Shown one piece after another: positions 34,440-53,203 of a stretch of 64,000 bases of DNA (positions are counted from its first letter, which is position 1; every line of letters begins with the position of its first letter). Both the position numbers and the translations under genes were made by a program. Origin of the DNA: Candidatus Omnitrophota bacterium (GTDB taxonomy: Bacteria; Omnitrophota; Gorgyraeia; Zapsychrales; Fredricksoniimonadaceae); NCBI GenBank assembly GCA_030650275.1, contig JAUSEK010000019.1, forward strand, positions 144-64,143, in the 5' to 3' direction. The notes under the pieces were generated by a model, which searched no databases, was not told the DNA's origin, and saw only the letters and a program-made list of their open reading frames with translations.

Positions 34440-34440
34440 A

Positions 34441-34477
34441 TTATGGGGACATGTACTTGTTACGTGTCCCCATAATT
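34441..34477. repeat. Palindrome TTATGGGGACATGTA-CTTG-TTACGTGTCCCCATAA with 15-bp arms, immediately after the sufU stop.
   Basis: Read directly. It shares the TTATGGGGACA end with the 9216 element. Confidence 0.8.
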
Positions 34478-34487
34478 CCTAAAAGGA

Positions 34488-34523
34488 TTGTCATTCCCGA
34501 ATGCTTTTGTCGGGAATCCAGAC
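34488..34523. repeat. Second copy of the ATTCCCGAATGCTT.TGTCGGGAATCCAGAC hairpin unit, in the moaA leader.
   Basis: Read directly. Confidence 0.75.
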
Positions 34524-34526
34524 ACT

Positions 34527-35543: not shown

Positions 35544-35549
35544 TGAGAA

Positions 35550-36605
35550 ATGAATAATTGGCCAATACCAGAGTTTACAAAAAGCCAAGTCAGTAAGGCC
35601 GGGGAAACATTAATTAACCCTACCTCTCCATTACAACAGGTAATGGCATTTCGAATACTCAATAATTGGCGTTCTTGTCACGGGTATCCAATTAATACTT
35701 TTCAATCTACTTTAAGGAAGAAGCTTGTTGCGATTGGAGTTCCTAAAGCTATCGTCGCGCAACGTTTAAAAAGAACACCTTCAATTATTAGAAAATTGAA
35801 AAGATTTAAGCATATGCAGCTTTCAAGAATGCAAGATATTGGAGGACTAAGAGCAGTGGTTAGGAATTTAGAGCAACTTCGTGCTTTGGAGAGTAATTAT
35901 GCTAAAAGCCGATTTGAGCATTTTTTTGTAAGTAAAGATGATTATATTCTCTCCCCCAAGAAATCAGGGTATCGGGGGGTTCATATTATTTATAAATATC
36001 GTAATAAAAAAGTGCCTGTATACGATGGTTTATTGCTCGAACTTCAAATTAGAACTGATTTACAACACGCCTGGGCAACAGCGGTAGAGACAATTGATAC
36101 ATTTTTAGAATTTTCATTAAAAGCAAGCGAAGGACCAAGAAGATGGCTTAAGTTTTTTGCTTTAGTAGGATCAGCATTTGCGCATTTAGAAGAAACAACA
36201 CCAGTTCCTGAGTATGGGCATTTATCAAAACGTGAAACATTTCTGGAGGTTGTACAGGCGGCTAAAGGGCTTGGTGTACGTCATAAATTAAGTGCTTTCT
36301 CTATTGTTGCAAATCATATTTTGACTGATGAGAAAACCAGTAGCTACCATTATCATTTAATCGAATTAAATCCTGCTGAGAAAACTGTTAGCCTTCGATC
36401 ATTTGGGCGGGATCAGGTTGAGTTAGCTAATGAGGAATATTCCAAGAAAGAGCAGCGTATTTTAAAAGGTGAAAAGTTGCAAATTGTTCTTGTTTCAGCG
36501 GGAAATATTGAAACATTAAAGCGGGCCTATCCTAATTATTTCTTGGATACCAAGAATTTTGTTCAAAGGTTAGATGAAATTGAGACATTAGTTGGAAAAC
36601 TATAA
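35550..36605 (+). CDS. RelA/SpoT-domain (alarmone-synthetase fold) protein of 351 aa with a ~160-aa C-terminal extension. Candidate CapRel-like fused toxSAS toxin-antitoxin defense protein.
   Basis: Synthetase motifs appear in order: basic Syn1 (..AIGVPKAIVAQRLKRTPSIIRKLKR..), DIGGLRAVV, GYRGVHIIY and ELQIRTDLQHAWA. There is no separate small antitoxin ORF beside it. The gene is AT-rich and sits at the island edge next to a Type I R-M system. Confidence 0.7.
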   Translation: MNNWPIPEFTKSQVSKAGETLINPTSPLQQVMAFRILNNWRSCHGYPINTFQSTLRKKLVAIGVPKAIVAQRLKRTPSIIRKLKRFKHMQLSRMQDIGGLRAVVRNLEQLRALESNYAKSRFEHFFVSKDDYILSPKKSGYRGVHIIYKYRNKKVPVYDGLLLELQIRTDLQHAWATAVETIDTFLEFSLKASEGPRRWLKFFALVGSAFAHLEETTPVPEYGHLSKRETFLEVVQAAKGLGVRHKLSAFSIVANHILTDEKTSSYHYHLIELNPAEKTVSLRSFGRDQVELANEEYSKKEQRILKGEKLQIVLVSAGNIETLKRAYPNYFLDTKNFVQRLDEIETLVGKL

Positions 36606-36660
36606 GAAATAGTAATTCTGATCAATAATGCCCAGCGGATTTGTTAAGGGAGAAAGCATA

Positions 36661-38235
36661 ATGACTGAAAAACAAAGAAAGAAGAACATTAAAAGTATTG
36701 AAGAAACCTTGTGGGATTCGGCAAATAAGCTCCGTGGTTCGGTTGAGCCATCAGAATACAAGCATGTGGTGCTGGGACTGATATTCCTGAAGTTTGCCAG
36801 CGACAAGTTTGAGGAACGCAAGCAGGAATTGATTGCCGAGGGCAAAAAGAAGTATTTAGACATGGTGGAGTTTTACACCAGCAAGAATGTGTTCTATCTA
36901 GCTGAAATCTCACGCTGGAGTTATTTGATCGGAAATGCCAAGCAAGACGACATTGCCATAAAGATTGATACAGCCCTTTTTACCGTTGAGAAGAACAACC
37001 CTGCTCTCAAAGGCGCTTTGCCTGACAATTATTATTCACGAATGAATCTGGATGGAAGCAAGCTGGCGGCTTTGCTCGACACCATCAACAATATTAACAC
37101 CCTTAAAGACAAGCAGCAGGACATTGTAGGCAGGGTGTATGAATACTTCTTGAGTAAGTTCGCCATTGCAGAAGGAAAAGGCAAAGGAGAATTCTACACT
37201 CCCAAGAGTATTGTAAACCTGATTGCAGAGATGATTGAGCCTTACAAAGGGAAGATTTATGACCCTTGTTGCGGTTCGGGCGGCATGTTTGTGCAGAGCA
37301 TGAAGTTTATTGAAAGCCATCACGGAAATAAAAAAGACATTTCCATCTACGGGCAGGAAGCAATTACCACTACTTACAAGTTGGCAAAAATGAATTTAGC
37401 CATTCGGGGCATCAGTGCCAACCTAGGCGATGTGGCAGAGAATACTTTCTTTCGTGATCAGCACAAAGATCTGAAAGCCGATTACATCATGGCTAACCCA
37501 CCTTTCAATCAAAGCCAGTGGCGGGCAGACAACGAACTTACTAACGATCCGCGATGGGCTGGCTACGATGTTCCGCCAACAAGCAATGCTAACTATGCGT
37601 GGATTCTAAACATGGTGAGTAAACTATCTGAAAACGGTGCGGCTGGTTTTGTTTTGGCGAATGGTGCATTGAGTGCCGACGGAACGGAGAAAGCTATTCG
37701 CAGAAAATTGATCGAGAATAATTTGGTGGAAGCAATCATGGTTTTACCTAAAGGCATGTTTTATACAACACCAATTAGCGTTACACTTTGGTTTATGAAT
37801 AGAAATAAAAAAGCAAGAACTATTGAACTAAATGGTGAAATTAAGAAATATCGCAACCGAGAGAGAGAAATCTTATTTTTTGATTTAAGAAAGGTGGGGG
37901 AACCTTTTGAAAAGAAATTCGTGCAGTTTTCAGAAACCGCTATTAAGCAAATAACCGATACCTTTCATAATTGGCAACAGGCTGGTTTTGAGAAAACATA
38001 TCAGAATACGCCAGAGTTTTGCCGCAGCGTATCATTTGAGGAAATAGAGAAGAAAGATTTCTCACTGGTACCAAGCAAGTATATTGAGTTTGTAAATCGT
38101 GATGAGAATATTGACTTTGACGATAAGATGCAGAGTTTACAAACGGAATTTGCCAACCTGCTGAAAATCGAAGAAGAGTCGAAGAAAGATCTATTAATCG
38201 TTTTTAAAGAATTGGGCTATGAAATTAAATTATAA
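36661..38235 (+). CDS. hsdM: Type I restriction-modification system, DNA methyltransferase subunit.
   Basis: HsdM N-terminal domain, an N6-MTase fold with catalytic NPPF (MANPPFNQSQW), and a SAM motif. The ATG at 36661 is preceded by an AAGGGAG RBS. Confidence 0.9.
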   Translation: MTEKQRKKNIKSIEETLWDSANKLRGSVEPSEYKHVVLGLIFLKFASDKFEERKQELIAEGKKKYLDMVEFYTSKNVFYLAEISRWSYLIGNAKQDDIAIKIDTALFTVEKNNPALKGALPDNYYSRMNLDGSKLAALLDTINNINTLKDKQQDIVGRVYEYFLSKFAIAEGKGKGEFYTPKSIVNLIAEMIEPYKGKIYDPCCGSGGMFVQSMKFIESHHGNKKDISIYGQEAITTTYKLAKMNLAIRGISANLGDVAENTFFRDQHKDLKADYIMANPPFNQSQWRADNELTNDPRWAGYDVPPTSNANYAWILNMVSKLSENGAAGFVLANGALSADGTEKAIRRKLIENNLVEAIMVLPKGMFYTTPISVTLWFMNRNKKARTIELNGEIKKYRNREREILFFDLRKVGEPFEKKFVQFSETAIKQITDTFHNWQQAGFEKTYQNTPEFCRSVSFEEIEKKDFSLVPSKYIEFVNRDENIDFDDKMQSLQTEFANLLKIEEESKKDLLIVFKELGYEIKL

Positions 38236-39445
38236 CAAACTTGGTCAGTATATTAAGGAAGTAAATGAAAGAAATAGTGATTTGGCTATTACCAAACTTA
38301 TTGGCGTAAGTATGGAGAAAACATTTATTTCTTCCGTTGCTAATATTGTTGATACAGATATGTCCGTTTATAAGATTCTAAAGAAAGGACAACTTGCTTG
38401 TAAGTTGATGAGTGTAGGAAGAGATGAAAAGCTTCCTGTGGATTTATATAAAAATGATGAACCTGCCATCGTTTCGTCTGCTTATTATGTTTTTGAACCA
38501 ATAGACAACAAGATTCTATTGTCAGAATATTTATTTATGTGGTTATGCCGTCCGGAGAATGATAGATACATTGGTTTTATAAGTGGTGGAGATGTCAGAG
38601 GAGGCATATCATGGGAAACATTTTGTGATATTCCTATTAAAGTTCCCCACCCTGCAAAACAAAAAGAAATTGTAAAAGAATACAACGCCATTGTAAAACG
38701 CATAGCTTTCAACAGTCAGTTTATTCAGAAATTAGAAGAAACAGCACAGGCAATTTACAAGCAATGGTTTGTTGATTTTGAATTTCCTAATGAGAGTAGA
38801 AAGCCCTACAGATCCAATAATGGTGAAATGGAATTTAATGAAAAATTAGAAAGAGAAATCCCAAAGGGGTGGAAAGTTGATGTAATTTCAAAGCTAGTAA
38901 CGGTAAAAGATGGCACACATGATTCACCCGAACCTACAGAGGTTGGTCATCCCTTGGTTACTTCAACGCACTTGAATCTATACGACCTTTCTTTGAATGA
39001 AACCTATAATATTAGCGCAGAAGATTTCAATCAAGCTAATAAACGGAGCAAAGTTGATAAGCACGACATTCTTTTTAGTATGATTGGCACGATTGGTTTA
39101 GTTAATTATGTTTTATATGACAATATAAATTTTGCAATTAAAAATGTGGGGCTTTTTAAGACATCTGAGAGAAAAGAAGTCGCAGAATACATTCTTTATT
39201 TCTTAAAGAGTGACTATTTGAAGTTACACATTCAATCAAGTTTATTAGGAAGCACTCAAAACTATGTAACATTAGACTTTTTAAGGACAATTCCTATTTT
39301 GATTCCTTCCAATAATATTTTTATACAATTTGAAGAATGTGCTGGGAAGATTGTTAATAATATTTATTTAAAAGTAAAAGAAAACAATGCTCTTAAAACA
39401 GTAAAGAATTTATTGCTTTCAAAACTTGCGACTATAGAGAATTAA
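38219..39445 (+). CDS. hsdS: Type I restriction-modification system, specificity subunit.
   Basis: Two target-recognition domains separated by conserved helical repeats; sits between hsdM and hsdR. Confidence 0.85.
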   Translation: MKLNYNKLGQYIKEVNERNSDLAITKLIGVSMEKTFISSVANIVDTDMSVYKILKKGQLACKLMSVGRDEKLPVDLYKNDEPAIVSSAYYVFEPIDNKILLSEYLFMWLCRPENDRYIGFISGGDVRGGISWETFCDIPIKVPHPAKQKEIVKEYNAIVKRIAFNSQFIQKLEETAQAIYKQWFVDFEFPNESRKPYRSNNGEMEFNEKLEREIPKGWKVDVISKLVTVKDGTHDSPEPTEVGHPLVTSTHLNLYDLSLNETYNISAEDFNQANKRSKVDKHDILFSMIGTIGLVNYVLYDNINFAIKNVGLFKTSERKEVAEYILYFLKSDYLKLHIQSSLLGSTQNYVTLDFLRTIPILIPSNNIFIQFEECAGKIVNNIYLKVKENNALKTVKNLLLSKLATIEN

Positions 39446-39448
39446 AAA

Positions 39449-42400
39449 ATGTTCAACGAGGAATCATTAGAAAAAGCCGTCATTGAGCTATTTGCAGGGC
39501 AACAAATCCCGCACTGCAAAGGTGAGACCATTCATAAAGAAATGAGTGATGTCTTGCTTCGCGATGATTTGAAGAAGTTTTTGCTCAATCAATACGCTGC
39601 TGAAGATATTACTCAGCAGGAAATTGAAAGCATCATCCGTAGTTTAGACTTTTTTCCAAGTTCAGCTTTATACGAAAGTAATAAAGCCATCATAAAATTA
39701 TTGGCAGATGGCTTTACAATAAAGAGGGCAGACCGTAGTAAGAAGGATCTCCGCATTCATCTGATAGACTTTGTAACAGACAATAACATTTATAAGTTCG
39801 TGAACCAATTGGAAATATTAGGTTACGAAAAACGTATCCCTGACGGCATTGTTTATATCAATGGCTTGCCATTAGTAGTAATCGAATTTAAAAGCGCAGT
39901 AAAAGAAAATACCACCGTCAAAGATGCCTACACTCAGTTAACGGTTCGCTACCGTAGGGATATTCCAGAGTTGTTTAAATACAATGCTTTTTGTGTAATA
40001 AGCGATGGCGTGAATAACAAAATAGGCTCTCTTTTTGCTCAATATGATTTCTTTTACGCATGGCGGAAAGTAAATCCTGAAGATGAAGCGGTAGATGGCA
40101 TCAATTCGCTTTATAGCATGGTGCAGGGCTTGTTTAACAAACAGCGCCTAAAAGATGTAATTCGTAACTTCATTTATTTCCCTGACACAGCTAAAGACGA
40201 TATAAAGATTGTATGCCGCTATCCGCAATACTACGCCGCTAACAAATTGTTTGATAGCGTTAAGTTGAATATGCGACCACACGGAAGCGGAAAGGGCGGA
40301 ACTTATTTCGGGGCAACTGGCTGCGGCAAAAGTTTCACCATGCTATATCTCACGCGGTTGCTCATGAAAAGCCCACACTTTGCAAGCCCGACCATTGTAT
40401 TGATCACCGATCGAACTGATTTAGACGACCAGCTATCAACACAATTTACCAATGCCAAAAGTTTTATTGGCGATGAAAATGTCATCAGCGTAGAAACCCG
40501 TGCCGAACTTAAAACACTGTTACAGAACAGAAAAAGTGGCGGTGTTTTTCTTACCACCATTCACAAGTTTACAGAAAGCACTGAGTTGCTCACCGATAGA
40601 TCAAATGTGATTTGTATTTCAGACGAAGCGCACCGTTCACAGATCAACCTTGACCAAAGAATAGAAGTTACCGATCAAGGGGTAGCTAAGAAATTCGGCT
40701 TTGCCAAGTACCTGCACGATTCTTTACCACAGGCTACTTACGTGGGCTTCACCGGTACGCCTATTGATGCAACGCTCGATGTGTTTGGTGAGGTAGTAGA
40801 TGCCTACACCATGAAGGAATCAGTGAACGATGAAATTACCGTTAGAATCGTTTATGAAGGCAGAGCCGCTAAAGTATTACTCAATGAGCAGAAACTGAAA
40901 GAGATTGAAGAATATTACAAGAAGTGTTCGGAAGAAGGCGCGAATGAATATCAGGTGGAAGAAAGTAAAAGAGTCGTTACGCAAATGGAAGTTATTTTGG
41001 GCGACCCAAAGCGATTGAAATTAGTAGCCGCAGACTTTGTGGAACATTACGAAAAGCGCATTGAAGAAGGATCTACCATAAGAGGCAAAGCAATGTTTGT
41101 AGCCAGTAGCCGCCCCATTGCTTACGATTTGTATAAAGAAATCATTGCCTTACGACCAGAGTGGGCTGAAGCAAAAGAATGCGAGGAAGGCGTAGAATTG
41201 ACTGCAGAAGAAAAGAGAGAGCTAAAGCCCATTGAGAAAATCAAAATGGTCATGACTCGGCATAGAGATGATCCAAAAGAGCTGTATGACATGCTTGGAA
41301 CAAAAGAAAGCAGAAAAGAGCTAGACCGGCAATTTAAGATTACAAAATCGAATTTCAAAATTGCAATAGTCGTTGATATGTGGATAACCGGCTTTGATGT
41401 TCCATTTTTAGATACTATGTATATCGATAAGCCCATTCAGCAACATTCATTGATACAAACAATCTCCCGAGTGAATCGTGTGTACGAAGGCAAAGAAGCG
41501 GGATTGGTGGTGGACTACATTGGAATTAAAACCAATATGAATATTGCTTTGGCGAAATATACAAAAGTTGGTAGTGATGATTTTGAAGATGTAGGCAAAG
41601 CGGTTGTAATTGTAAAAGATCAGCTGGACTTGCTTGCAAAGCTCTTTCACAAGTTTGATCTACAACCTTTCTTTAACGGGACAGCAATGCAGCAGCTAAG
41701 TTGCCTTAATAACGCAGCAGAGTTTGTCCAGTTGACAGATGAAATGGAAAAGCGTTTTATTGGATTAACCAAGAAGTTACGATCTGCGTATAGCCTTTGC
41801 TGCAGCAGCGAAGGGCTTAGCGCTAAAGAAAGAGACCACATCCATTTTTATTTTGCCGTTAAAGCCATTATCCACAAATTAACAAAAGGCGATGCGCCCG
41901 ATACGGCACAGATGAATGACAAAGTGAGGGAAATGATTAAAGAGGCCTTGATCAGCGATGGCGTAGAAGAGATTTTCAAGCTAGATAAGAACGACCCAAA
42001 GAACAGTACAGATATTTTCAGCGATGAATACATGGCAAAGATAGAGAAAATTACATTGCCGAATACTAAAATCAAGTTGCTTCAGAAATTGCTGATTCAA
42101 GCAATTGAGGAATTTAAGAAGGTAAACAGAATTAAAGGTGTTGATTTTACCAAGAAGATGAAAAAGCTGGTTGATCTGTATAATGAAAGAAAAGATTTTC
42201 AGGCAATGCAAAGCGATGTGTTGGACGATGTAGCCGAACAGTTTGCGAAGCTGTATAGAGATTTGCAGAAGGAGCGCAACTCATTCATGGATTTAGGAAT
42301 TGATTTTGAAGAAAAGGCATTTTATGACATTCTGAAAGCCATTGCACTGAAATACAAGTTTGAATATCCCGAAGATAAATTGATTGTACTTTCACAAGCA

Positions 42401-42589
42401 GTTAAAAAGATTGTGGACGATAAAGCGAAATATACTGATTGGTCTCATCGTGATGACATCAAAGCAGAATTAAAGATGGATTTGATTTTAGTTCTCGCTG
42501 AACATGGTTACCCCCCAGTACCCAAAGATGAAGTTTTTAAAGAAATATTTGAACAGGCCGAGAATTTCAAGAAATATAGTGAATTATAA
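39449..42589 (+). CDS. hsdR: Type I restriction enzyme, R (endonuclease/translocase) subunit.
   Basis: A 1046-aa protein with an N-terminal PD-(D/E)xK-like nuclease region, SF2 motifs (GSGKS..., DEAH in ISDEAHRSQ), and a C-terminal helical domain. Confidence 0.9.
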   Translation: MFNEESLEKAVIELFAGQQIPHCKGETIHKEMSDVLLRDDLKKFLLNQYAAEDITQQEIESIIRSLDFFPSSALYESNKAIIKLLADGFTIKRADRSKKDLRIHLIDFVTDNNIYKFVNQLEILGYEKRIPDGIVYINGLPLVVIEFKSAVKENTTVKDAYTQLTVRYRRDIPELFKYNAFCVISDGVNNKIGSLFAQYDFFYAWRKVNPEDEAVDGINSLYSMVQGLFNKQRLKDVIRNFIYFPDTAKDDIKIVCRYPQYYAANKLFDSVKLNMRPHGSGKGGTYFGATGCGKSFTMLYLTRLLMKSPHFASPTIVLITDRTDLDDQLSTQFTNAKSFIGDENVISVETRAELKTLLQNRKSGGVFLTTIHKFTESTELLTDRSNVICISDEAHRSQINLDQRIEVTDQGVAKKFGFAKYLHDSLPQATYVGFTGTPIDATLDVFGEVVDAYTMKESVNDEITVRIVYEGRAAKVLLNEQKLKEIEEYYKKCSEEGANEYQVEESKRVVTQMEVILGDPKRLKLVAADFVEHYEKRIEEGSTIRGKAMFVASSRPIAYDLYKEIIALRPEWAEAKECEEGVELTAEEKRELKPIEKIKMVMTRHRDDPKELYDMLGTKESRKELDRQFKITKSNFKIAIVVDMWITGFDVPFLDTMYIDKPIQQHSLIQTISRVNRVYEGKEAGLVVDYIGIKTNMNIALAKYTKVGSDDFEDVGKAVVIVKDQLDLLAKLFHKFDLQPFFNGTAMQQLSCLNNAAEFVQLTDEMEKRFIGLTKKLRSAYSLCCSSEGLSAKERDHIHFYFAVKAIIHKLTKGDAPDTAQMNDKVREMIKEALISDGVEEIFKLDKNDPKNSTDIFSDEYMAKIEKITLPNTKIKLLQKLLIQAIEEFKKVNRIKGVDFTKKMKKLVDLYNERKDFQAMQSDVLDDVAEQFAKLYRDLQKERNSFMDLGIDFEEKAFYDILKAIALKYKFEYPEDKLIVLSQAVKKIVDDKAKYTDWSHRDDIKAELKMDLILVLAEHGYPPVPKDEVFKEIFEQAENFKKYSEL

Positions 42590-42647
42590 AAATAGGGTCC
42601 TATTTTAAGTGCCAGTTCTTTTATTAATTTATTAAGGATTTTTTATT

Positions 42648-42676
42648 AGAAATAGTAACAGGCGCTAATTTTTTTA
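42648..42676. repeat. Junction motif AGAAATAGTAACAGGCGCTAATTTTTTTA.
   Basis: A near-identical copy at 49313-49340 directly abuts the mazG-like start codon. Confidence 0.7.
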
Positions 42677-42733
42677 AGATGAACACTATGAGTGTTTAGC
42701 GAAATGGACGTGATTTGGTAAGGGCGGTATAAA

Positions 42734-44380
42734 TTGGGAACGAAAATAAGAAAATATAATCTCAAGGAACTCGTTCGTTTTATCGAGTCGAAGCATGTTG
42801 CTGTCCCAGAGTTTCAGCGCGGGTTTGTCTGGAAAACGGGACAGGTTAAGAAGCTTTTCGATAGTCTCATAAAACAATATCCTGTGGGTAGTTTTATTCT
42901 TTGGGAAACAAACAAGCATATCGATGCCCGAACTTTGGATGGTGAAAAATTGCCTCAAAGAAAGTTCTTGATATTAGATGGGCAACAGAGAATGGCAAGT
43001 ATATATTACCTTTGTCGCCAAAAGAAATTTGTTGAGCCTCGTGTGAAAGATAAGTTTCATGAAACCTGCGATAATCGCGAACGTCAAGTTATTGACTTCG
43101 AGAAGTTTTATATCGACAGAAACAAAAAGGGACCGGTTCTGGAATATGCTCGGGAAAGTTCGTGTGAATTGGATTTTAATAAATTCTCTCGTCTCGTTCG
43201 AAATAGCTATCGGGTGCCTGTAATAACTATTTCATTGAACGACTATCACCACGCGATAGAAGTATTTGAGCGTATCAATCAGGCGGGCACTCGTATTTCA
43301 ACGGAATCAATATTCTTATCAGAGACTTGGAATCAGCATTCCAATATTGGTAAAATTTTGAGAACATGGAAAAGGCAAAACAGAGAAGCTCTTACCAGCG
43401 GAATAGACACTGTTATCTTTATACATGTTTTCGCGATAATTTTACAGTTAGAGAAACGGAAGCAACAAACAGTCGAGATAGGAATTACTACGCTAAAAAA
43501 GATAGCCGAAGAAGTTCATCAGCATACAAGTAACACATATAACAAGATTTTTAAAGATGTCGTAGATTCAGTGGCCCGCGCAGTTACTCATTTAAAAGAA
43601 GAATATGAGATCGTTTCCCTTAGCGATTTGCCTTCGCAGACAATGATTACGATTTTAGCGGTATTTTCTTACTATCGAAAAAGAGCACCTACTAAGAAGC
43701 AGGCAACTGAGTTGAGAAAATGGTTCTGGCGATCGTCACTTTCTAATCGGTATATCGGTTCTGGCTACTCGCAACATATTGGCATGGATGCTAAGAAGAT
43801 GCGTGATTTGGCTGAGCATAATCGCGACTTGAAAATCTCCCCAGCGGATATAAAAATATTTGCGAAAGTTAAAGGTGTTGATATACGTGCTGGTCGTTCG
43901 ACTTACCGTAATATTATTAAACAGGCTCTTTGGCAACAAACCCCAATTTTTATAAATGGAAAAAAGATAAGTCGGGATGATGTTGAATCCGGCCAGCATA
44001 AACCAGAAGATGACCATTTTTTCCCTTATGATTTATATCGAAAAGGTATCTCTGGACAAGAAATCAATAATATATTGAATATTCATTTTTTGAATGGAGA
44101 CGAGAATAGCAGAAAAAAGAATCGTTTACCATCGGAGTGGTTACAAGAACAGATTGACGATATTGGAGCAAATGCTAGCATAGTCGAAAAATATTTTTCC
44201 AGTCAGCTGCTGCCATTTAGAAATTTGAAAGATCTTCGCAGATATGAGCGTGCCTTTAAAGAAAAAGGGATGCGGGCGAAACAGAGTAAGTTTGCGCGTA
44301 GTTATCAGAGTTTTTTATGGCGTAGATTTAAGCTGTTTGAAAAAACGCTTAATCGCCTACAAAATGGCCGATTGAAATAG
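42734..44380 (+). CDS. GmrSD-family protein (DUF262 N-terminal ParB/Srx-like NTPase domain plus DUF1524 His-Me finger C-terminus). A type IV modification-dependent restriction endonuclease-like protein.
   Basis: The DUF262 hallmark DGQQR (ILDGQQRMASIYY) and a C-terminal H..EDDHFFPY His-Me-finger-like motif. TTG start per the track; AT-rich. Confidence 0.75.
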   Translation: MGTKIRKYNLKELVRFIESKHVAVPEFQRGFVWKTGQVKKLFDSLIKQYPVGSFILWETNKHIDARTLDGEKLPQRKFLILDGQQRMASIYYLCRQKKFVEPRVKDKFHETCDNRERQVIDFEKFYIDRNKKGPVLEYARESSCELDFNKFSRLVRNSYRVPVITISLNDYHHAIEVFERINQAGTRISTESIFLSETWNQHSNIGKILRTWKRQNREALTSGIDTVIFIHVFAIILQLEKRKQQTVEIGITTLKKIAEEVHQHTSNTYNKIFKDVVDSVARAVTHLKEEYEIVSLSDLPSQTMITILAVFSYYRKRAPTKKQATELRKWFWRSSLSNRYIGSGYSQHIGMDAKKMRDLAEHNRDLKISPADIKIFAKVKGVDIRAGRSTYRNIIKQALWQQTPIFINGKKISRDDVESGQHKPEDDHFFPYDLYRKGISGQEINNILNIHFLNGDENSRKKNRLPSEWLQEQIDDIGANASIVEKYFSSQLLPFRNLKDLRRYERAFKEKGMRAKQSKFARSYQSFLWRRFKLFEKTLNRLQNGRLK

Positions 44381-44388
44381 GATTCAGT

Positions 44389-44492
44389 TGGAAACAATTT
44401 CACAATCATAAGGATGTGGCGTTGTCCCTAGTTTTGCAGGCGGCGGAGGTGCTGGAGCATTTCTAGTGGAAATCGCCGCAAGAGGTCAAGAA
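44389..44492 (+). pseudogene. Degenerate fragment of a MazG-like gene, corresponding to residues ~20-54 of the intact copy at 49341, with an in-frame TAG.
   Basis: About 88% nucleotide identity to 49397-49502. Its translation KQFHNHKDVALSLVLQAAEVLEHF*WKSPQEVK compares with the intact KQFHNHKDVALSLVLEAAEVLEHFQWKSPQEVK. Confidence 0.8.
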
Positions 44493-44766
44493 AGTAGCTA
44501 AGAGTTTACTTGCGACGCTTAAACATGGGCAGTGAGTGCTTGATTGGTGTAAAAGACAACAAACGCGAGCAGCTGTCCGTGTGGCTATTGGCCGGGTCTC
44601 GGATGAATTATCGCAACGTTATGGTTGCGATCTTTTTGAATCAAAGTGTGAGGTCATTTATTGACACATTTATGATAGTTATTTTGGTGAGGGAAGAAGT
44701 TATTTTGTAAGAAATTGAGTTTTTATATGAAAAATGCAACAGACCTAAACTATATAAAGACTCGCG

Positions 44767-47700
44767 ATGATTCCTAAATTCAACAAAGGCGACCAGGTTC
44801 AGCGTACAAACGACTCCAGTCGTATCGGGGTTATTGTTGATGTGGATGTTTTACATGGTGGAATTCAATATTATAAAGTTTTTTTTGATGGAGAAGAACG
44901 TCCGGTTCTTTCAGAGTTTGATATTCGGCCCCACATAGAGGGGGTTTCGCCAGTGGATGTCTTAAGGCTGGGGCACTTGGGATTTTTCGAAGAATTTCAG
45001 TTGAACATCCTTTATCAGAAGCTTTCTAAGATTAATATCCTTACAAATAACCTTTATTCATTTAATGCCTCCCGAACCAATTTTTATCCGTATCAGTTCA
45101 AGCCACTTCTCAAGTTTCTGGATTCTTTCAACAATCGCGTTCTTATTGCGGATGAGGTAGGTCTTGGTAAAACTATTGAGGCGGGTCTTATTTTTCAGGA
45201 ATTAAAAGCGAGGCAAAATCTCCAACGGATTCTTGTCGTTTGCCCGTCAGGTCTGAAAGACAAATGGAAGATGGAAATGGAACATCGCTTTGGGGAAGAA
45301 TTTAATATTTGGCGTCGGCCAGACCTCATGCGTTTCTTGGATAAGCTTGAGGAGTCTTATGCGGTTCAGTCCTTGAAGGTTATTATTCCACTTGAAACTA
45401 TTCGCTACAGGGGTGTAGTTGAACGAATAGAAGAGATCGGTCCTGCATTTGATTTGGTGATCATTGATGAAGCGCATCATATGCGAAATCAGACAACGCT
45501 GAACCATAGGACTGGAAAAGTTTTGAGCGATTTTGCAGATGCTATGGTTATGTTAACGGCAACCCCAGTGCAAATGGGGAATAGAGATCTTTTTAATTTA
45601 TTGCATATTTTAGATGATGAGAACTTTTCAAATCATCAAGTTTCGGAGGAACTCTTTACTCAAAATGAACCTGTTGTCTTGGCCCAAACATGTTTGAGCC
45701 ATATTCCCGCAGATCTTGAAAGAGCTGGGGAGTTGTTAACCGATTTTTTTGCGGATTTAGATAAGGCAAGGAAGCCTTATCAGCATAATCTTTGTTTGGA
45801 TGTTATTGATCGGATGAAGCAGCTCAAGGCAGTTGATCAGCGATTGCCAGAATATCGTCGCCAGTTAGTCGATATTCAGAGGAATGTGTCGGAATTAAAC
45901 TTTCTAGGACATATTCTAAATCGCACTCGCAAGAGAGATGTTAAAGAAAAGATCGTGTTACGACAGGCTAAAACTGTGAAGGTGGATCTATCTGATAAGG
46001 AGAAGGTGTTTTATAAGGCTGTAGAGGCCTTTGTGCGGGCGGATGCAAAGAGGCGGGGCATTGATTCAAGGGTGATTGGATGGATGCTGATCAATCCGTT
46101 AAGACGTACGGCTTCGTGTATATCAGCTATGGTGGAGCATTATAAGCAGCATTTAGATAATTCTGAAGTTGAGGATGATGATCCTCTAGATGATGAGAGT
46201 GATGAGAAAACAGAGTCAAAAAGCTCAGGTTTTGAATTGGCGCGTAATAATCTTTTGGAAATTATTAACACTTGGGGAGGGTCTACTGAAGATACGAAAT
46301 TTCAAAAGTTTATGGAGGCTATTCAGAAGTTAAAGAAAGAGGATGGGAAGCTCAAAATAATGGTTTTTGCTTTTTATAAGGCAACCTTACGTTATCTTTC
46401 TAAAAAATTGAAAGCTGCGGGGATAAAAAATCTTATTATTTCAGGAGACGTGCCTTATAAAGAGCGAGCGGCATTGATTAATCAATTTAAGGACGAAAAT
46501 TCTTCTATAGAAGTGTTGTTGTCATCAAGGGTCGGCAGTGAAGGTTTAGATTTTCAATTTTGCGATACCATGGTTAATTATGATCTTCCATGGAACCCAA
46601 TGGAGGTTGAGCAGAGAATAGGACGCCTTGATCGTATTGGGCAGCGCTCCCAAAAGATCAGAATTTATAACATGTCTTTGGCGGATACAATAGAGGATCG
46701 GGTGCTTATGCGGCTTTATGAACGGATCGGGATTTTTGAACGTTCGATAGGAGGATTGGAGCCTATTATGGGCGCGCAGATCCAGGAACTTGTTACTGAG
46801 GTGTTGACCAAAGAGCTTTCTGCTAAAGAGCAGGAGGATCTTGTTGAACGCAAGGCATTGATTTTGGAGAAGAAAGAACGGGAGATGCGTGAGCTGGAGG
46901 AAAAATCGGCAAAATTTATTGGGGTAGATACTTATTTTGAAGATGAGATTGCAAGAATACAGAAAACAAGAAGATATATAACTCCGCAGCAGTTGAAAAA
47001 GTTTATTCTTTATTTTTTAGAGCGGTTCTTCCCAAAGACTCGCTTTGAATATTCCGAAAAGACTTGCCTAGGGAAGATTGTGGCTGATCAAGCGTTGCAA
47101 GGTTTTATCTCAAAATGTGAAAAGTCACATGATTTATCAAGATTTTATTCTACGGATGGGGTTGAAATTACCTTTGATTCTGATACGGCTTTGCAGAATC
47201 CCAGTATAGAGTTTCTAAATAATACGCATCCACTAACAGCTCTTATCTTAAGGTATTATCAAGAAAATCCGATTCATCACAATAATGCTTATTTTGTTAA
47301 ACTTGATACGAATATTGCGCCTAAGGGGAAATATTTTTTTTATGTATTCCGACTTAAAATCGAAGCGGCGCGACACACCAACACGATTGAGACAGTTTTT
47401 ATTGATGAAACCCTTAATGAGATTTGCCCAGGAGAAGATTCCGAGGTTTTGTTAGGTGAGATGCTAGAGAGCGGGCGGAGATCGGAAGATGGAAGCTCTT
47501 TTTCTATTGATCCAGGTTATTTGGATCAGTCCCATCGTATGGCGCTAGGGACATTTTTAAAGAATAAGGAACAAAGAAAATCTGATGCGGAACGGAGCAA
47601 TAACCTTTTGATTGAAGGTCGAGTAGCCAGTATTCGATTAAATTTTGAAAAGAAGATTAAACAGAAACAGAAATTATTAGAAAGGGGTATTCAGGGGAAT

Positions 47701-47847
47701 AAGAAAAAGAGTTATCTTACGATGCTAGAGGGGGAGATTAGGAAATATAGAAATCAAATGGAGGCTGGCATCACTTTGGAGGAGACCAAACGGAGCGTCA
47801 GTTGTTCGCATGTTGAAATTGCTGCAGGGATTCTGGAGATCGTGTAG
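44767..47847 (+). CDS. SNF2-family (Swi2/Snf2, RapA/HepA-like) helicase/translocase of 1026 aa with an N-terminal Tudor/SH3-like domain.
   Basis: Motif I DEVGLGKTIEAG, motif II DEAHHMRN, and a helicase-C region (..LSSRVGSEGLDFQFCDTMVNYDLPWNP...QRIGRLDRIGQ). The N-terminus KGDQVQR...RIGVIVDV....YYKVFFDG resembles the RapA N-terminal Tudor-like fold. Confidence 0.85.
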   Translation: MIPKFNKGDQVQRTNDSSRIGVIVDVDVLHGGIQYYKVFFDGEERPVLSEFDIRPHIEGVSPVDVLRLGHLGFFEEFQLNILYQKLSKINILTNNLYSFNASRTNFYPYQFKPLLKFLDSFNNRVLIADEVGLGKTIEAGLIFQELKARQNLQRILVVCPSGLKDKWKMEMEHRFGEEFNIWRRPDLMRFLDKLEESYAVQSLKVIIPLETIRYRGVVERIEEIGPAFDLVIIDEAHHMRNQTTLNHRTGKVLSDFADAMVMLTATPVQMGNRDLFNLLHILDDENFSNHQVSEELFTQNEPVVLAQTCLSHIPADLERAGELLTDFFADLDKARKPYQHNLCLDVIDRMKQLKAVDQRLPEYRRQLVDIQRNVSELNFLGHILNRTRKRDVKEKIVLRQAKTVKVDLSDKEKVFYKAVEAFVRADAKRRGIDSRVIGWMLINPLRRTASCISAMVEHYKQHLDNSEVEDDDPLDDESDEKTESKSSGFELARNNLLEIINTWGGSTEDTKFQKFMEAIQKLKKEDGKLKIMVFAFYKATLRYLSKKLKAAGIKNLIISGDVPYKERAALINQFKDENSSIEVLLSSRVGSEGLDFQFCDTMVNYDLPWNPMEVEQRIGRLDRIGQRSQKIRIYNMSLADTIEDRVLMRLYERIGIFERSIGGLEPIMGAQIQELVTEVLTKELSAKEQEDLVERKALILEKKEREMRELEEKSAKFIGVDTYFEDEIARIQKTRRYITPQQLKKFILYFLERFFPKTRFEYSEKTCLGKIVADQALQGFISKCEKSHDLSRFYSTDGVEITFDSDTALQNPSIEFLNNTHPLTALILRYYQENPIHHNNAYFVKLDTNIAPKGKYFFYVFRLKIEAARHTNTIETVFIDETLNEICPGEDSEVLLGEMLESGRRSEDGSSFSIDPGYLDQSHRMALGTFLKNKEQRKSDAERSNNLLIEGRVASIRLNFEKKIKQKQKLLERGIQGNKKKSYLTMLEGEIRKYRNQMEAGITLEETKRSVSCSHVEIAAGILEIV

Positions 47848-49309
47848 AGTTTTTTTTCAAAAAAAGTCGTTATCTGGTCAGAAAGTCAAACCGGAAGATC
47901 AGACCGAAAGTCCTGCCGCTGCGCCTGCAATTATCAAGACATCATCTGGGAAGCTTCCCATTCATGTTGGTATTGATTTTGGAACAAGTTGTTCTAAAGC
48001 GTGTTATCAAATCCAAGATGGAAGGGAGAAGGTTTACTTAATTGATTTTAAACATCAGTTAAAGTCTTTTCCTTCATACGTTATTCCTTCAGTTCTTATT
48101 GGTGATGAGCAAAATCGGATATATATAGGTGAAGAGGCAGGTGAGGCTGTAGAAGCAGGAAAATGGGGATTAGGGTTAAGAAATTTTAAAACACTCTTAG
48201 CGTCAGTTCAGAATGAGGATTTTGTTGACAAAGTTTCCGCATCTCATTTCAAGGAAAATTTACAACTATTAGGTCTTGATAAGGAGGGCGTTGGAGTATC
48301 AGAAGTTACGTCTCTTTATGTTGCCTATATGATGCACCGATGCAGAGATTTTCTAAAGCGTCAATATGTAGGCAGAGAATTGCATATTAATTATAATGTG
48401 TGTATTCCTATCGATTATGCTGAAGATAATCTCGTAAGAAAAGACTTTGAAAAAATGTTGGCTGTAGCTCAGGAACTCTACAGATTTTGGGAACGAGAGA
48501 AAGGTGAGTCGCGCAGTTTATTACGTCTTGCCAGTGAATTAAAAAGCCAGTGTGTATATGATGAAACTCAAATGAATGTTTTTGCTATTCCTGAGGCTGT
48601 CGCAGAACTGGTTGGTTATCGTAAGTCTGCGGATAGGGAGGCAGGCTTGTACGCTCTTATTGATATTGGTTCGGGAACAACCGACGTATCGATTTTTAGA
48701 CTTGACCGAGGTTTGAAAGAGCGTGCTGTGTGGTTGTCATCAGATGCTATACCTATGGGCATGTATCAATTAGAGAAATTAGTTGTGAAAGCTTTGAGGA
48801 AACAAGGACATGATGATTCGTTGGGTGAAGTTTATAGAGCTTTCGAGAATTTTAAGGAAATTTCAACCGGGCTTCAGGAGGATGTGTTCTTAAGAATAAG
48901 AAAGAGGATTAGGGCTTTTATTAGAAGTGATGAGTATAAAAGACCTTGGAGATCTGCTCATATCAAATTGAGGAAACAAAGAAGAGAGAGTTTGGATGAT
49001 ATAAAGATTGTTTTTCTCGCAGGAGGAGGAGCAAAGATTGCCTTGGCCAAAGGCATGAATTTTCTTTTTAGTTCATCGCCGCTTGCTTCATCGGCGGTTT
49101 CTAAAAAGCCCTATAACTTGTCAGCGTTGTCCTGTTCTCCCAATCTAGAGGGTGCTTTGGTTTCTGATTTTTGGCGCCTATCCGTGGCTTATGGATTAAG
49201 TTTTCCAGCACCAAAGTTGGGAGAATATAAGCTTCCGAAAGATTTTCCAGAGGATAATCCGCCTTCTTTACCAATACAGGATTGGCCGGATAGGGATGAT
49301 ACGCGGTAA
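47810..49309 (+). CDS. Hsp70/actin-fold (ASKHA superfamily) ATPase of 499 aa. Its start overlaps the 3' end of the SNF2 gene by 38 nt.
   Basis: Phosphate-1 motif HVGIDFGTSCSKA (compare DnaK IGIDLGTTNS), a connect motif VFAIPEAVAELVGY, and phosphate-2 ALIDIGSGTTDVSIF (compare DnaK DLGGGTFDVS). Confidence 0.75.
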   Translation: MLKLLQGFWRSCRVFFQKKSLSGQKVKPEDQTESPAAAPAIIKTSSGKLPIHVGIDFGTSCSKACYQIQDGREKVYLIDFKHQLKSFPSYVIPSVLIGDEQNRIYIGEEAGEAVEAGKWGLGLRNFKTLLASVQNEDFVDKVSASHFKENLQLLGLDKEGVGVSEVTSLYVAYMMHRCRDFLKRQYVGRELHINYNVCIPIDYAEDNLVRKDFEKMLAVAQELYRFWEREKGESRSLLRLASELKSQCVYDETQMNVFAIPEAVAELVGYRKSADREAGLYALIDIGSGTTDVSIFRLDRGLKERAVWLSSDAIPMGMYQLEKLVVKALRKQGHDDSLGEVYRAFENFKEISTGLQEDVFLRIRKRIRAFIRSDEYKRPWRSAHIKLRKQRRESLDDIKIVFLAGGGAKIALAKGMNFLFSSSPLASSAVSKKPYNLSALSCSPNLEGALVSDFWRLSVAYGLSFPAPKLGEYKLPKDFPEDNPPSLPIQDWPDRDDTR

Positions 49310-49340
49310 AAAGAAATAGAGTGACAGGCGCTAATTTTTA

Positions 49341-49688
49341 ATGGCAGAAATCAAAACAATCACCGCAAAAATAAGAAAATTCCGCGATGAGCGGGATTGG
49401 AAGCAATTCCACAATCATAAGGACGTGGCGCTGTCTTTGGTCTTAGAGGCGGCAGAAGTGCTGGAGCATTTCCAGTGGAAATCGCCGCAAGAGGTCAAGG
49501 AACATGGCGAGGCCTGCAGGTCCGAGATCTCGGATGAGCTGGCGGATGTTGCCGTGTATTTATTTGAACTCGCGGATAATCTCGGGATCGATTTGTCAAA
49601 GGCCATTGATATCAAAATGAAGAAAAATGCCCTGAAATACCCGGTTGAGAAAGCCAGGGGCAGGCATACGAAATACAACAATCTTTAG
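49341..49688 (+). CDS. MazG-like nucleoside triphosphate pyrophosphohydrolase (small all-alpha NTP-PPase).
   Basis: EEA.E..E motifs in ..LEAAEVLEHF.. and ..ELADVAVYLFELA.. characteristic of MazG/HisE-type NTP-PPases; 115 aa. Confidence 0.75.
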   Translation: MAEIKTITAKIRKFRDERDWKQFHNHKDVALSLVLEAAEVLEHFQWKSPQEVKEHGEACRSEISDELADVAVYLFELADNLGIDLSKAIDIKMKKNALKYPVEKARGRHTKYNNL

Positions 49689-49692
49689 GTAG

Positions 49693-49775
49693 AAATTAAA
49701 CATTTGAAAATCGCGCCAGGAATCATTAGAATCATCCTTAGTCAAGCAGGGCTTCCCCGGCCGTAGTCTGTTTGA
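49693..49775 (+). promoter_or_regulatory. Repeat unit R1: near-consensus sigma70 promoter (TTGAAA-17nt-TAGAAT, with -35 at 49704-49709 and -10 at 49727-49732) plus a conserved leader GTCAAGCAGGGCTTCCCCGGCCGTAG, upstream of the ORF6N gene.
   Basis: Read directly; a 17-nt spacer. Copies R2 (50399-50482) and R3 (51801-51900) match at roughly 85-95%. Confidence 0.65.
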
Positions 49776-49828
49776 CAAAAATCCCCTGTAGTAAATCTAT
49801 TAACTTTTAATCTACAAGGGGGTATTCC

Positions 49829-50371
49829 ATGTTCAAGAAATCAGAAACTGTCGCATCGGTCGAGATCATTCAAAACAAGATCTTTTTGATCCGGGGCCGG
49901 AAGGTCATGCTGGATAGGGATCTAGCGGAATTATACGGAGTGCCGACAAAAAGGTTTAATGAACAGGTCAAGAGAGGCATAAAGAGGTTTCCAGCAGATT
50001 TTATGTTTCAATTGACCCAGGAAGAATATGAAAACTTGAGGTCGCAAATTGCGACCTCAAGTTGGGGAGGAAGACGGTACCTGCCTTATGTATTTACCGA
50101 TTACGGTGTAGCAATGCTTTCCAGCGTGTTAAATAGTGACCGAGCTGTTGAGGTTAATATACAGATCATGCGGGCTTTTGCCAGATTGAGGGAGATGATT
50201 ATTTCCCACAAAGATCTGGCTCGCAAGATCGAAGACCTGGAGCGGAATTTTAAAGACCATGATAAGAAGTTTGTTGAGGTTTTTGAGGCGATCAGGCGGT
50301 TGCTGCAGAAAAAAGAAGAGCCGCCCAAGCCCAAGATACCGATCGGGTTTCATCCGCCAATGAAGCCGTAA
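49829..50371 (+). CDS. ORF6N-domain protein (phage antirepressor-type DNA-binding N-domain) with a coiled-coil C-terminus.
   Basis: IRGRKVMLDRDLAELYGV.TKRFNEQVKRGIKRFPADFMFQLTQEE matches the ORF6N domain consensus. Confidence 0.75.
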   Translation: MFKKSETVASVEIIQNKIFLIRGRKVMLDRDLAELYGVPTKRFNEQVKRGIKRFPADFMFQLTQEEYENLRSQIATSSWGGRRYLPYVFTDYGVAMLSSVLNSDRAVEVNIQIMRAFARLREMIISHKDLARKIEDLERNFKDHDKKFVEVFEAIRRLLQKKEEPPKPKIPIGFHPPMKP

Positions 50372-50398
50372 AAAATATAAAACTCCAGCCGTTGGTTG

Positions 50399-50482
50399 GA
50401 GAAATTAACATTTGAAAACCGCGCCAGGAATCATTAGAATCATCCTTAGTCAAGCAGGGCTTCCCCGGCCGTGATCTGCTTG
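50399..50482 (+). promoter_or_regulatory. Repeat unit R2: TTGAAA (50412-50417) -17nt- TAGAAT (50435-50440) plus the conserved leader, upstream of the AbiEii gene.
   Basis: Read directly. Confidence 0.65.
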
Positions 50483-50617
50483 GTAAATTCCCCTCCAAGT
50501 GAGGACATTGATACGATTCTTCAAGGTGCCAATTTGGCTCCCCATGCGGAGCATCAGTCTTCTTGATACAATTTGACAATACTACTTATGAGTAGTATAC
50601 TTTCAGTGAGGCCAAAG

Positions 50618-51313
50618 ATGAAAAACAAGATCGCCTATATAAAGAAAGAGCAGAAAAGAATCACCGGATTAGTCGCTCGCAAATTCAAGGACTATTACTT
50701 GACCGGCGGCACGGCGCTGGCTTTTTATGTCCGGCACCGTTTCTCGGAGGATTTAGATTTTTTTAGCCAAAAGTATGACAAGAAAACACCGGAAAAGATC
50801 ATGGCCTATATTTCCCAAGAAACCGGATTTGATTATCAACTGGATGCCGAGCAGGATGATCCTAAATTAATTCCGATGAAGGTTTATTTTATGGAATTAA
50901 AGGGTGGTGAAGTATTGAAGATAGATTTTGTTAAGGATTATGTCGCAAATGTCCATCCAATCAAGAACGGTATGCACTCCATGGATGATATTTACTACAG
51001 GAAGATCTGTGCGGCGATAGGGGGCCAGGAAAAACAAGGCGAGGCAGGGCAGGTCGTGGCCACGGGCCGGCGAAGCGTTAAAGACCTGTTTGATATTTAC
51101 TATCTTTCTTCTCATTACAAGTCGTTGGCGGATTTTTTCTTTGAATATTTTGCGTACAACCATACAGAACGCCTTGAAGCCTGGTACAGAGGGTTTGACC
51201 GGACAGAAGCAAAATTGGCTTTGATGGACCTGGTTCCCAAGGTGGACACGGGGAAGGTTTTTAAGTATTTGGATGGGCAAATATTAAAACTGATCCCTGG
51301 AAAACTGTTGTGA
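50618..51313 (+). CDS. AbiEii/AbiGii-family nucleotidyltransferase toxin (DUF1814).
   Basis: GGTALAFYVRHRFSEDLDFF matches the AbiEii NTase motif (GG[ST]AL ... R.S.D[IL]D). The start was taken at MKNKIAYI (50618). Confidence 0.7.
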   Translation: MKNKIAYIKKEQKRITGLVARKFKDYYLTGGTALAFYVRHRFSEDLDFFSQKYDKKTPEKIMAYISQETGFDYQLDAEQDDPKLIPMKVYFMELKGGEVLKIDFVKDYVANVHPIKNGMHSMDDIYYRKICAAIGGQEKQGEAGQVVATGRRSVKDLFDIYYLSSHYKSLADFFFEYFAYNHTERLEAWYRGFDRTEAKLALMDLVPKVDTGKVFKYLDGQILKLIPGKLL

Positions 51314-51320
51314 GGCATCT

Positions 51321-51788
51321 ATGAAGATCAATTGGTTGTGGGACACAACGCTGAACAAGGTGCGGGTCAAGAAGATCCTGCATAATGAAAGAGACCCGCG
51401 TTTTTACATTTATGCGGAGAAGTTGTTTTCCCGTGTCGACGATCCCAAGGAGGCCTTTAGTTATGTTTCTAAAGAAGCTTTTTGCCGTCAATGGCCTGTT
51501 GTCAGAAAAAGGATCGCAAAAGATGCCTGGGCAAGAGAGAGGGCGGGTTTCTGGCAGGGTATCTATGAACAGACGTTGAGTATCCCGCCAGAGCGATTAA
51601 GTGTTGCCCAACGGATCAAAGAATTAAGGGTCCATATGGGGTATACCCAAAAGGAAATGGCTAAAAGATTGGGTGTTATTCAGCAGTACGTTTCCCGTTT
51701 GGAAGCCGGCCGGGAGAATTTGACCTTGGATACCTTAAAACGGATAGCCCAAGTTTTTGATAAAGATCTGATCGTTCAATTGAATTAA
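51321..51788 (+). CDS. XRE-family HTH protein (C-terminal HTH_XRE, novel N-terminal domain); candidate cognate antitoxin or regulator for the upstream AbiEii.
   Basis: The C-terminus QRIKELRVHMGYTQKEMAKRLGVIQQYVSRLEAGRENLTLDTL is a classic HTH_3. The gene starts 8 nt after the AbiEii stop. Confidence 0.6.
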   Translation: MKINWLWDTTLNKVRVKKILHNERDPRFYIYAEKLFSRVDDPKEAFSYVSKEAFCRQWPVVRKRIAKDAWARERAGFWQGIYEQTLSIPPERLSVAQRIKELRVHMGYTQKEMAKRLGVIQQYVSRLEAGRENLTLDTLKRIAQVFDKDLIVQLN

Positions 51789-51800
51789 TTCGAGTGGCAC

Positions 51801-51900
51801 GTTATGAGGTTTGGGTGAGGGAAGTTTTTGAAAACTGCACCAGGAATCATTAGGATCATTCTTAGTTAAGCAGGGCTTCCCCGGCCATAGTTTGCTTGCT
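51801..51900 (+). promoter_or_regulatory. Repeat unit R3: TTGAAA (51828-51833) -17nt- TAGGAT (51851-51856) plus the conserved leader, upstream of the Bro-N gene. It is preceded by the motif TTATGAGGTTTGGGTGAGGG.
   Basis: Read directly. Confidence 0.6.
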
Positions 51901-51945
51901 CCCCGTAGCACAAGCGTTATAATCTATTAAACAGAAGGGGGCATC

Positions 51946-52788: not shown

Positions 52789-52794
52789 AAAAAT

Positions 52795-53016: not shown

Positions 53017-53203
53017 GGTCCACCTATTTTTACCCGGCAATTTGATTGACAGGGGGTTGCCCGGTGATATATTGAAAACAGATGTATCGGAGAGTCCTGT
53101 GTTGAAGGGGGAACCTGGACTATAAAAAAAGTAAAACCTTCGCAAGGTCAGATGGCTGACTCGGCGGGGTTTTTTTATTTATATCAAACGAAAGGACAGG
53201 ATT

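Follow-up and report, generated by a model that had tools for sequence, protein, structure and literature searches.

Core-gene-flanked defence hotspots have been described in Pseudomonas aeruginosa, as cDHS1/2 (PMC10250203), and in Escherichia coli, as defence-island hotspots (PMC10121019). They have fixed core-gene flanks with content that is swapped between strains, they are low in GC (guanine plus cytosine) and dense in defence genes, and they carry no mobile-element hallmark genes; homologous recombination in the flanks is a proposed route of exchange (PMC10250203, PMC10121019). Stacking of modules that leaves orphaned remnants behind has been described for the orphan arrays of the Vibrio type VI secretion system (T6SS) and of Rhs loci, with homology-facilitated illegitimate recombination as the proposed mechanism (PMC5361080). 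How systems are gained and lost in defence hotspots without mobile-element genes is still debated. Here we analyse a defence island in 64,000 nucleotides (nt) of a Candidatus Omnitrophota bacterium (contig JAUSEK010000019.1), called the window below, in which an intact MazG-like gene (mazG), a pseudogene fragment of mazG and two copies of a 28-nt motif lie among defence genes. We read it as a core-gene-flanked hotspot where one-sided or illegitimate recombination has stacked two haplotypes and cut the resident mazG short, and we assign this history a probability of roughly 0.6. The case is clear but ordinary: events of this kind are known, and it shows no new mechanism or kind of element.

The island appears as a low-GC block from about 35.5 to 54 kb (33-49% GC, versus about 54% in the rest of the 64-kb window), and the interval between the convergent core genes moaA (34527-35543, + strand, MoaA in the source record) and murB (54067-54996, - strand) is 35544-54066, or 18.5 kb. 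The other parts of the island for which coordinates are given below are on the + strand. For comparison, sister genomes were used, that is, groundwater metagenome contigs carrying members of the MazG 90% cluster. The contig L083 aligns with the window at 90% identity over 27212-35539 and at 87-93% over 54067-59457, with no alignment between these blocks apart from mazG and the adjoining 86-nt R element (mazG-R). The flanks of L085 align likewise (87-93%, up to 35541 and again from 54067), and both contigs align at 88-90% on the left, up to 35539 and 35541. Homology to the sisters breaks off at the moaA stop codon (35541-35543) and picks up at the murB stop codon (54067). The flanking blocks, suf-nifU-moaA on the left and murB-moaE-lytB on the right, are common to L083, L085 and related loci with 87-93% identity.

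The content of the interval differs in each case. It is about 4 kb long in the L083 type, with an open reading frame (ORF) of 60 amino acids (aa), a DpnI-like methyl-directed restriction enzyme, a 126-aa ORF, mazG and an 84-aa/CopG/metallophosphatase group, and about 7.9 kb long in the L085 type, with small ORFs, a 296-aa protein, a 783-aa SLFN-type helicase with an S24 peptidase domain, mazG and Gp49/helix-turn-helix (HTH) pairs. In L101, moaA is followed by a LexA-like gene and a type II methyltransferase. In the window, a type I restriction-modification (R-M) system, a GmrSD gene and an SNF2/actin-like pair lie left of mazG. In all, the left-hand side shows four distinct contents and the right-hand side at least three. 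The defence genes are the DpnI-type enzyme, the SLFN-type helicase and the type II methyltransferase in the sister islands, and type I R-M, GmrSD, DrmD-like, PDC-S33, PDC-S05 and AbiEii in the window. Only mazG and R are common to all haplotypes, with 90-95% identity. Pfam scans of the island ORFs and adjacent genes found no integrase, transposase or other recombinase domain, and there is no tRNA anywhere in the window. With conserved flanks, varying and defence-rich content and none of these mobility features, the moaA-murB interval is a chromosomal defence hotspot whose content is replaced between strains while every haplotype seen retains mazG-R. The conserved resident, or internal anchor, of the island is mazG. 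The earlier note on this DNA, made from the sequence alone, had proposed that cargo was swapped in at a recombination hotspot, and the four gene sets in the same interval of sister genomes bear this out.

In its fixed flanks, swapped content, low GC, dense defence genes and lack of mobile-element hallmark genes, the locus is like cDHS1/2 and the E. coli hotspots. It differs from them in belonging to an uncultured Omnitrophota lineage, in its small size (4-18.5 kb), in having mazG and R inside, which split the island into two independently varying halves, and in preserving a datable scar of one event. The location is lineage-specific, since neither moaA nor murB is found beside mazG in the more distant genomes.

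The scar is a fragment of mazG at 44388-44493. In a BLASTN comparison of 42500-44800 with 49200-49800, this stretch aligned without gaps to 49397-49502, with 92 of 106 positions identical (86.8%, E 2e-33), and the same repeat was also obtained from an independent repeat search. The earlier note had described here, downstream of the GmrSD-like gene, a mazG copy of about 104 bp and about 88% identity with an in-frame TAG, to be checked by aligning the region 42600-44760 with that of mazG; the similarity is far above chance, and the copy holds at 106 nt with its TAG at 44464-44466. The fragment is in the mazG frame from W20 to E54 (codons 20-54), and its GC of 48% is like that of mazG and unlike that of its neighbours (38-40%). 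It also carries the change E36Q, which hits a Glu that is invariant in the 120 nearest relatives. Because it holds only residues 20-54, with E36Q and a stop, the fragment is a pseudogene. The intact gene (49341-49688, 115 aa) is full-length, has its metal-binding Glu residues intact and matches Pfam PF12643 with 72.7 bits against a cut-off of 27. A longer pseudogene, extended to about 44634 through a 'SDEL...LFE' stretch that a whole-window tblastn had joined to it, was rejected: alone, the stretch gave E 0.22 (307-nt target), and it is a terminator-like hairpin.

The differences between the fragment and the intact alleles bear on its origin. Relative to the co-resident mazG there are 14 nt differences leading to 3 amino-acid changes, while 14 substitutions placed at random, with the transition/transversion split retained as the neutral expectation, lead to 8.7 +/- 1.6 (P=0.0005). 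Eight of the 14 are synonymous variants that also occur in sister alleles, mostly the L083 allele. The other six are private to the fragment, three of them synonymous and three non-synonymous (E36Q and the stop included), and such a 3:3 split is as expected from decay after inactivation. By allele, the fragment differs at 11 positions from L083, to which it is 91% identical over 101 nt, and at 14 each from the window, L082 and L085. Its third-position divergence from all intact alleles is 0.17-0.26, in line with the 0.20-0.30 by which the core flanks diverge between these genomes. The fragment is therefore a diverged allele and no recent in-place duplicate, and plausibly it is the allele of the resident lineage. 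The third-position divergence of the intact mazG from the L085/L082 alleles is 0.12-0.14, and because it is closer to them than the core flanks are, it would be the later arrival, which suggests a more recent import. The fragment was not found in other haplotypes, either among the genome loci or in the metagenome scan.

These data also weigh on an in-place tandem duplication of motif and mazG in this genome, after which one copy decayed and cargo was inserted between the two. Such a history would explain why motif and fragment share direct order and orientation with their partners, at distances of about 6.66 kb and 5.0 kb, and why the motif copies are so similar (1 mismatch and a 2-nt indel). 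It does not sit well with differences that are strongly biased to synonymous sites, with the eight that are polymorphisms of sister-strain alleles, with a fragment nearer to the L083 allele than to the co-resident copy, or with a third-position divergence equal to that between strains. We regard it as improbable. An old in-place duplication is likewise disfavoured by the allele pattern, although one whose two copies long stayed functional could have happened. The earlier note had left it at 'duplicated or invaded'; the data fit invasion and not duplication, as the two mazG copies are diverged alleles.

The second trace is the 28-nt motif. Copy A (AGAAATAGTAACAGGCGCTAATTTTT, 42648-42673) lies in the hsdR-GmrSD spacer and has the spacing of the L083 variant. 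Copy B (AGAAATAGAGTGACAGGCGCTAATTTTT, 49312-49339) lies between the stop codon of the actin-like gene and the mazG ATG (49341) and ends one base ahead of the latter. The copies match at 25 of 28 positions, with one mismatch and one 2-nt gap. In the 64 kb, allowing up to two mismatches brings up no occurrence of the 16-mer core ACAGGCGCTAATTTTT other than those at 42658 and 49324 (0.06 expected; none of 100 shuffles gave two), in agreement with the earlier note, which had placed the motif upstream of the GmrSD-like gene and again at the mazG ATG. That these similarities are due to chance or to an assembly artefact might be supposed for AT-rich sequence and entirely metagenomic data, but it is hardly credible in view of the E value of the fragment and the shuffles of the motif. 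Also, unique non-mazG sequence lies on both sides of the fragment, and a separately assembled Logan contig has the identical arrangement from hsdS to mazG.

All L083-type contigs carry a variant of the motif, AAAGAAATAGCGGCAGGCGTTAATTCTT, 20 nt ahead of mazG, and in L083 it encodes the last nine codons and the stop of the 126-aa ORF. The L085/L082 type lacks it in front of mazG. In a pattern scan of the metagenome collection it turned up on L083-type contigs only, plus four chance matches inside unrelated coding sequence, and it is in none of the 80 genome loci with mazG relatives, so that it was rejected as a widespread site. It was also rejected as a structured RNA or terminator because it folds no better than shuffles. 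The motif is best read as a lineage-specific 5' flank of mazG in one haplotype family and not as a general junction or recombination site. The ancestral arrangement that the earlier note had postulated, with the motif followed by mazG, is thus a real haplotype, that of the L083 type. Its use of the motif as a junction mark holds in so far as the two copies are real, but fails as a general rule given the absence from L085/L082 and the coding role in L083. The 126-aa ORF itself (L083 9319-9699) shows a GNAT-like motif, RRQGYGLKIL, by eye and has no Pfam or PADLOC match.

It was also considered that the motif is an attachment (att) site, with the 6.66-kb segment of GmrSD, fragment and SNF2/actin-like pair as one site-specifically inserted element between attL and attR. 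Two direct copies of 26-28 nt do bracket the extra genes, and the third variant stands just upstream of the L083-type mazG, as an empty site would. Against this, the island has no integrase or other recombinase, the motif is as rare and confined as described above, in other places GmrSD and the SNF2/actin-like module stand by themselves and lack the motif, and a mazG-internal fragment inside the element would be left unexplained. Repeats at the element ends in other hosts, together with a cognate recombinase, were not found either. We consider such an insertion very improbable.

The borders of the cargo modules were obtained from their relatives in other contexts. The GmrSD/DUF262 cassette (42711-44384) consists of the gene (42734-44380, TTG start), preceded by 23 nt that include the ribosome-binding site and followed by 4 nt. 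Its closest relative, in L106, has 93% protein identity, and the DNA is 90.3% identical over 1675 nt, confined to 42711-44384, while the L106 flanks are unrelated. Because a 90% copy stands in an unrelated context with homology limited to these borders, GmrSD is a separately mobile module. The two-gene module (44767-49309) is formed by a DrmD-like SNF2 helicase (44767-47847, 1026 aa) that overlaps an actin/Hsp70-fold ATPase (47810-49309, 499 aa) with weak MreB-like_C and PDC-M61B matches. The nearest relative of the actin-like protein (84%), in L104, has 86% DNA identity over 46250-49309 and diverges straight after the stop codon, and therefore motif B is outside the module. A pair with 40% identity is found in L105 (4970-9485), beside another type I R-M and without mazG. 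The pair thus recurs as a conserved unit; it is also a separately mobile module, and possibly an uncharacterised defence pair. The view of the earlier note that the GmrSD-like and SNF2/Hsp70-like genes are swapped-in cargo is supported by their recurrence elsewhere at 90% and 86%, and its gene labels (GmrSD_N/DUF262, SNF2, actin/Hsp70-fold and MazG-like) were right. Relatives of the type I R-M (hsdM cluster) were found in other contexts, beside a serine recombinase or CBASS (cyclic oligonucleotide-based antiphage signalling system), with neither motif nor mazG.

Some further details of these modules were recorded. The N-terminal domain of the GmrSD protein matches GmrSD_N (DUF262) with 99.9 bits; for the C-terminal half, where a DUF1524 His-Me nuclease is expected, no Pfam match was reported, and the best PADLOC matches are PDC-M55C and HEC-05. 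The TTG start at 42734 corresponds to an ATG (304) in the L106 relative, and the 23-nt upstream part has no obvious promoter.

Between the modules lie three short stretches. The 34-nt filler between motif A and the GmrSD cassette (42677-42710) is outside the L106 homology. It was tried as a remnant of the mazG 5' end (42677-42745 vs 49340-49410) and rejected, as 474 of 1000 shuffles were as good and the L083 spacer did no better. At the joint between the GmrSD cassette and the fragment there is CAG at 44385-44387, with GGATT vs GGGATT as a candidate microhomology. The spacer 44494-44766 has a terminator-like hairpin (44610-44631) with a T run and an AT-rich region upstream of the SNF2 gene, and showed no homology in any fetched locus. 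Here the earlier note had seen a third trace, at about 44680, echoing the left end of the repeat copy R3. The string TTTTGGTGAGGGAAG is indeed present near 44682, but the similarity is within chance: the spacer scores 16.5 against the R3 region, compared with 12.9 +/- 2.4 in shuffled sequences, of which 48 in 500 score as high. Moreover, the matched piece of R3 is outside the part common to R1 and R2, and alignments to R1 and R2 are below the shuffle average.

We propose the following history for the stacking of the two haplotypes. The ancestor would have had cargo, motif, mazG and R in this order, with an allele from the haplotype family that carries the 28-nt motif ahead of mazG. In a first step, DNA of another haplotype would have entered, bringing the SNF2 and actin-like ATPase module, its own motif and an intact mazG-R. 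On the right side this DNA would have joined by homologous recombination in or beyond mazG/R, and on the left by an illegitimate join inside the resident mazG after nt 162, that is, by homology-facilitated illegitimate recombination. The two cargo sets would thereby have been stacked instead of exchanged, leaving the truncated resident mazG(1-162) as junk. In a second step, the self-contained GmrSD cassette may have landed in this dispensable remnant, removing the spacer and mazG nt 1-56. In favour of stacking, the allele nearest to the fragment (11 vs 14 differences) is that of L083, which is also the haplotype with the motif before mazG. Furthermore, a truncated resident gene stands beside foreign DNA with the intact mazG-R on the anchor side. 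At present neither the fragment nor motif A is likely to do more than form 3' untranslated or intergenic DNA around GmrSD.

The arrangement is like the T6SS effector-immunity arrays of Vibrio cholerae (PMC5361080) and Rhs C-terminal displacement, where a module with a one-sided homologous anchor is added and a truncated piece of the resident remains upstream. It differs from them in that the cargo is anti-phage while theirs consists of toxin/immunity pairs, and that there is a single remnant vs a long array. Also, no donor for the illegitimate joint was found here.

Several points weigh against the stacking of two haplotypes. No donor or intermediate haplotype was found, be it hsdR-motif-mazG or SNF2/actin-like-motif-mazG without the type I R-M, and for this reason we infer the order of events and the joints, as well as the recombination mechanism. 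The alleles nearest to the intact mazG (L085/L082) are without the motif, so no sampled haplotype represents the supposed donor. No source was found for the sequences beside the joints (42677-42710, 44385-44387 and 44494-44766). The argument on resident versus imported alleles has 35 fragment codons behind it, and all related sequences are metagenome assemblies.

A plain homologous exchange of island halves, with crossovers in moaA, mazG-R and murB, could have brought in the fragment with the left half of the donor, as an older scar of another lineage. The island borders at core-gene stop codons and the presence of mazG-R in all haplotypes would be ideal for double crossovers, and the intact mazG is nearer to L085/L082 than the flanks are. 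However, this merely shifts the illegitimate event to another lineage, the divergence of the fragment fits a resident as well as an imported allele, and no other haplotype with the fragment was found. We treat it as unlikely, though deserving serious attention. If haplotype stacking is correct, one event has left a readable scar, made of a truncated resident allele and an imported intact one, with module borders mapped within a few bases. It would concretely support, for an uncultured phylum, the idea that systems are gained through one-sided or illegitimate recombination as additions and not as swaps. A conserved gene inside an island can also act as an internal anchor. The comparative data support the interpretation of the earlier note, which was largely right once 'invaded' replaces 'duplicated'.

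Directly 3' of mazG is R1 (49694-49779), a copy of the 86-nt repeat R with a promoter-like TTGAAA-17-TAGAAT followed by a hairpin. Further copies in the window are at 50402-50487 and 51818-51903, and those in the sisters are at 534-619 in L082, at 10076-10161 and 11523-11543 in L083, and at 7924-8008, 8836-8875 and 10049-10072 in L085. A full copy stands behind mazG every time, and additional full or partial copies, one of them 100% identical over 40 nt, are at right-side cassette borders in every haplotype. None was found in viral contigs and more distant genomes. R could be a portable promoter/5' untranslated region and a recombination anchor. With short cassettes trimmed to the ORF and R repeated between the cassettes right of mazG, the island is also like an integron cassette array. 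On the other hand, no integrase was found here, in particular no IntI tyrosine recombinase beside the array among the island ORFs and adjacent genes; R is promoter-like and upstream of cassettes instead of a 3' attC; and the motif is not at cassette ends elsewhere. The R hairpin, which was set against attC without an attC model, is simple and folds no better than shuffles.

From these elements one might go further and see mazG, with the motif in front and the promoter-bearing R behind, as a platform dedicated to the stacking of defence cassettes in Omnitrophota without an integrase, which we hold to be doubtful. If it were true, short conserved elements would be the preferred crossover anchors, R would give a promoter to each added cassette, and the mazG fragment and the partial R copies would be regular by-products of stacking.

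MazG-like genes have a recurrent neighbour elsewhere. In 28 of 72 genome loci, the MazG-like gene is directly followed by an ORF for a helicase of SLFN group 3 (ex-DUF2075), about 800 aa long, that often overlaps the mazG stop, with an S24 peptidase domain in 19 of the 28 and GIY-YIG in 7. Examples are L009 10345-12750 and L005 10426-12855 (among loci L002-L081), and also L085 5204-7555; in PADLOC there are partial matches only (PDC-S41, Nhi, AbiO). The two genes seem to form a recurrent module, and in the full-text literature no paper joining DUF2075, MazG and defense was found. Some Omnitrophota genomes have at least two MazG-like genes, about 20 kb apart or on separate contigs, as in CAVYLG010000005.1 (L005, L012) and JBAZER01 (L006, L023), and those of L006 and L011 sit among ORF6N and AbiEii/HTH cassettes that resemble those of the window.

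The proteins of the window are on record as MDO8675472-87 (Candidatus Omnitrophota metagenome-assembled genome). The left cargo (35550-42589, 38% GC vs 53% in the core) was identified by Pfam and PADLOC matches and is missing from the sister islands. It starts with a RelA/SpoT-domain gene, the PADLOC candidate PDC-S33, which is followed by the type I R-M genes hsdM (36628-38235), hsdS (38219-39445) and hsdR (39449-42589). The right-hand cargo (49829-53953) comprises ORF6N, AbiEii with an HTH gene, Bro-N, small ORFs and SIMPL, and its contents differ in the sister islands. Genes of the sister islands, such as the 126-aa ORF and DpnI of the L083 type, were not found as further fossils in the window. 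An Rfam search over 34-56 kb returned nothing, and there was a single sub-threshold match elsewhere.

Several repeats were also seen outside the island. A 42-nt repeat with 93% identity occurs at 21804-21845 and 34482-34523, and also at L083 7248-7282, with the inverted repeat TCCCGA...TCGGGA inside. The copy in the nifU-moaA spacer, just left of the island, is conserved in the sister genome, and the repeat has a REP (repetitive extragenic palindromic)-like look. In the core genome there are also a dispersed palindromic repeat, GTAGGGGCACGGCATGCCGTGCCCCTAC, with two copies (6566-6600 and 30643-30677), and a 35-nt inverted repeat with a third related arm (9211-9297, 22098-22130).

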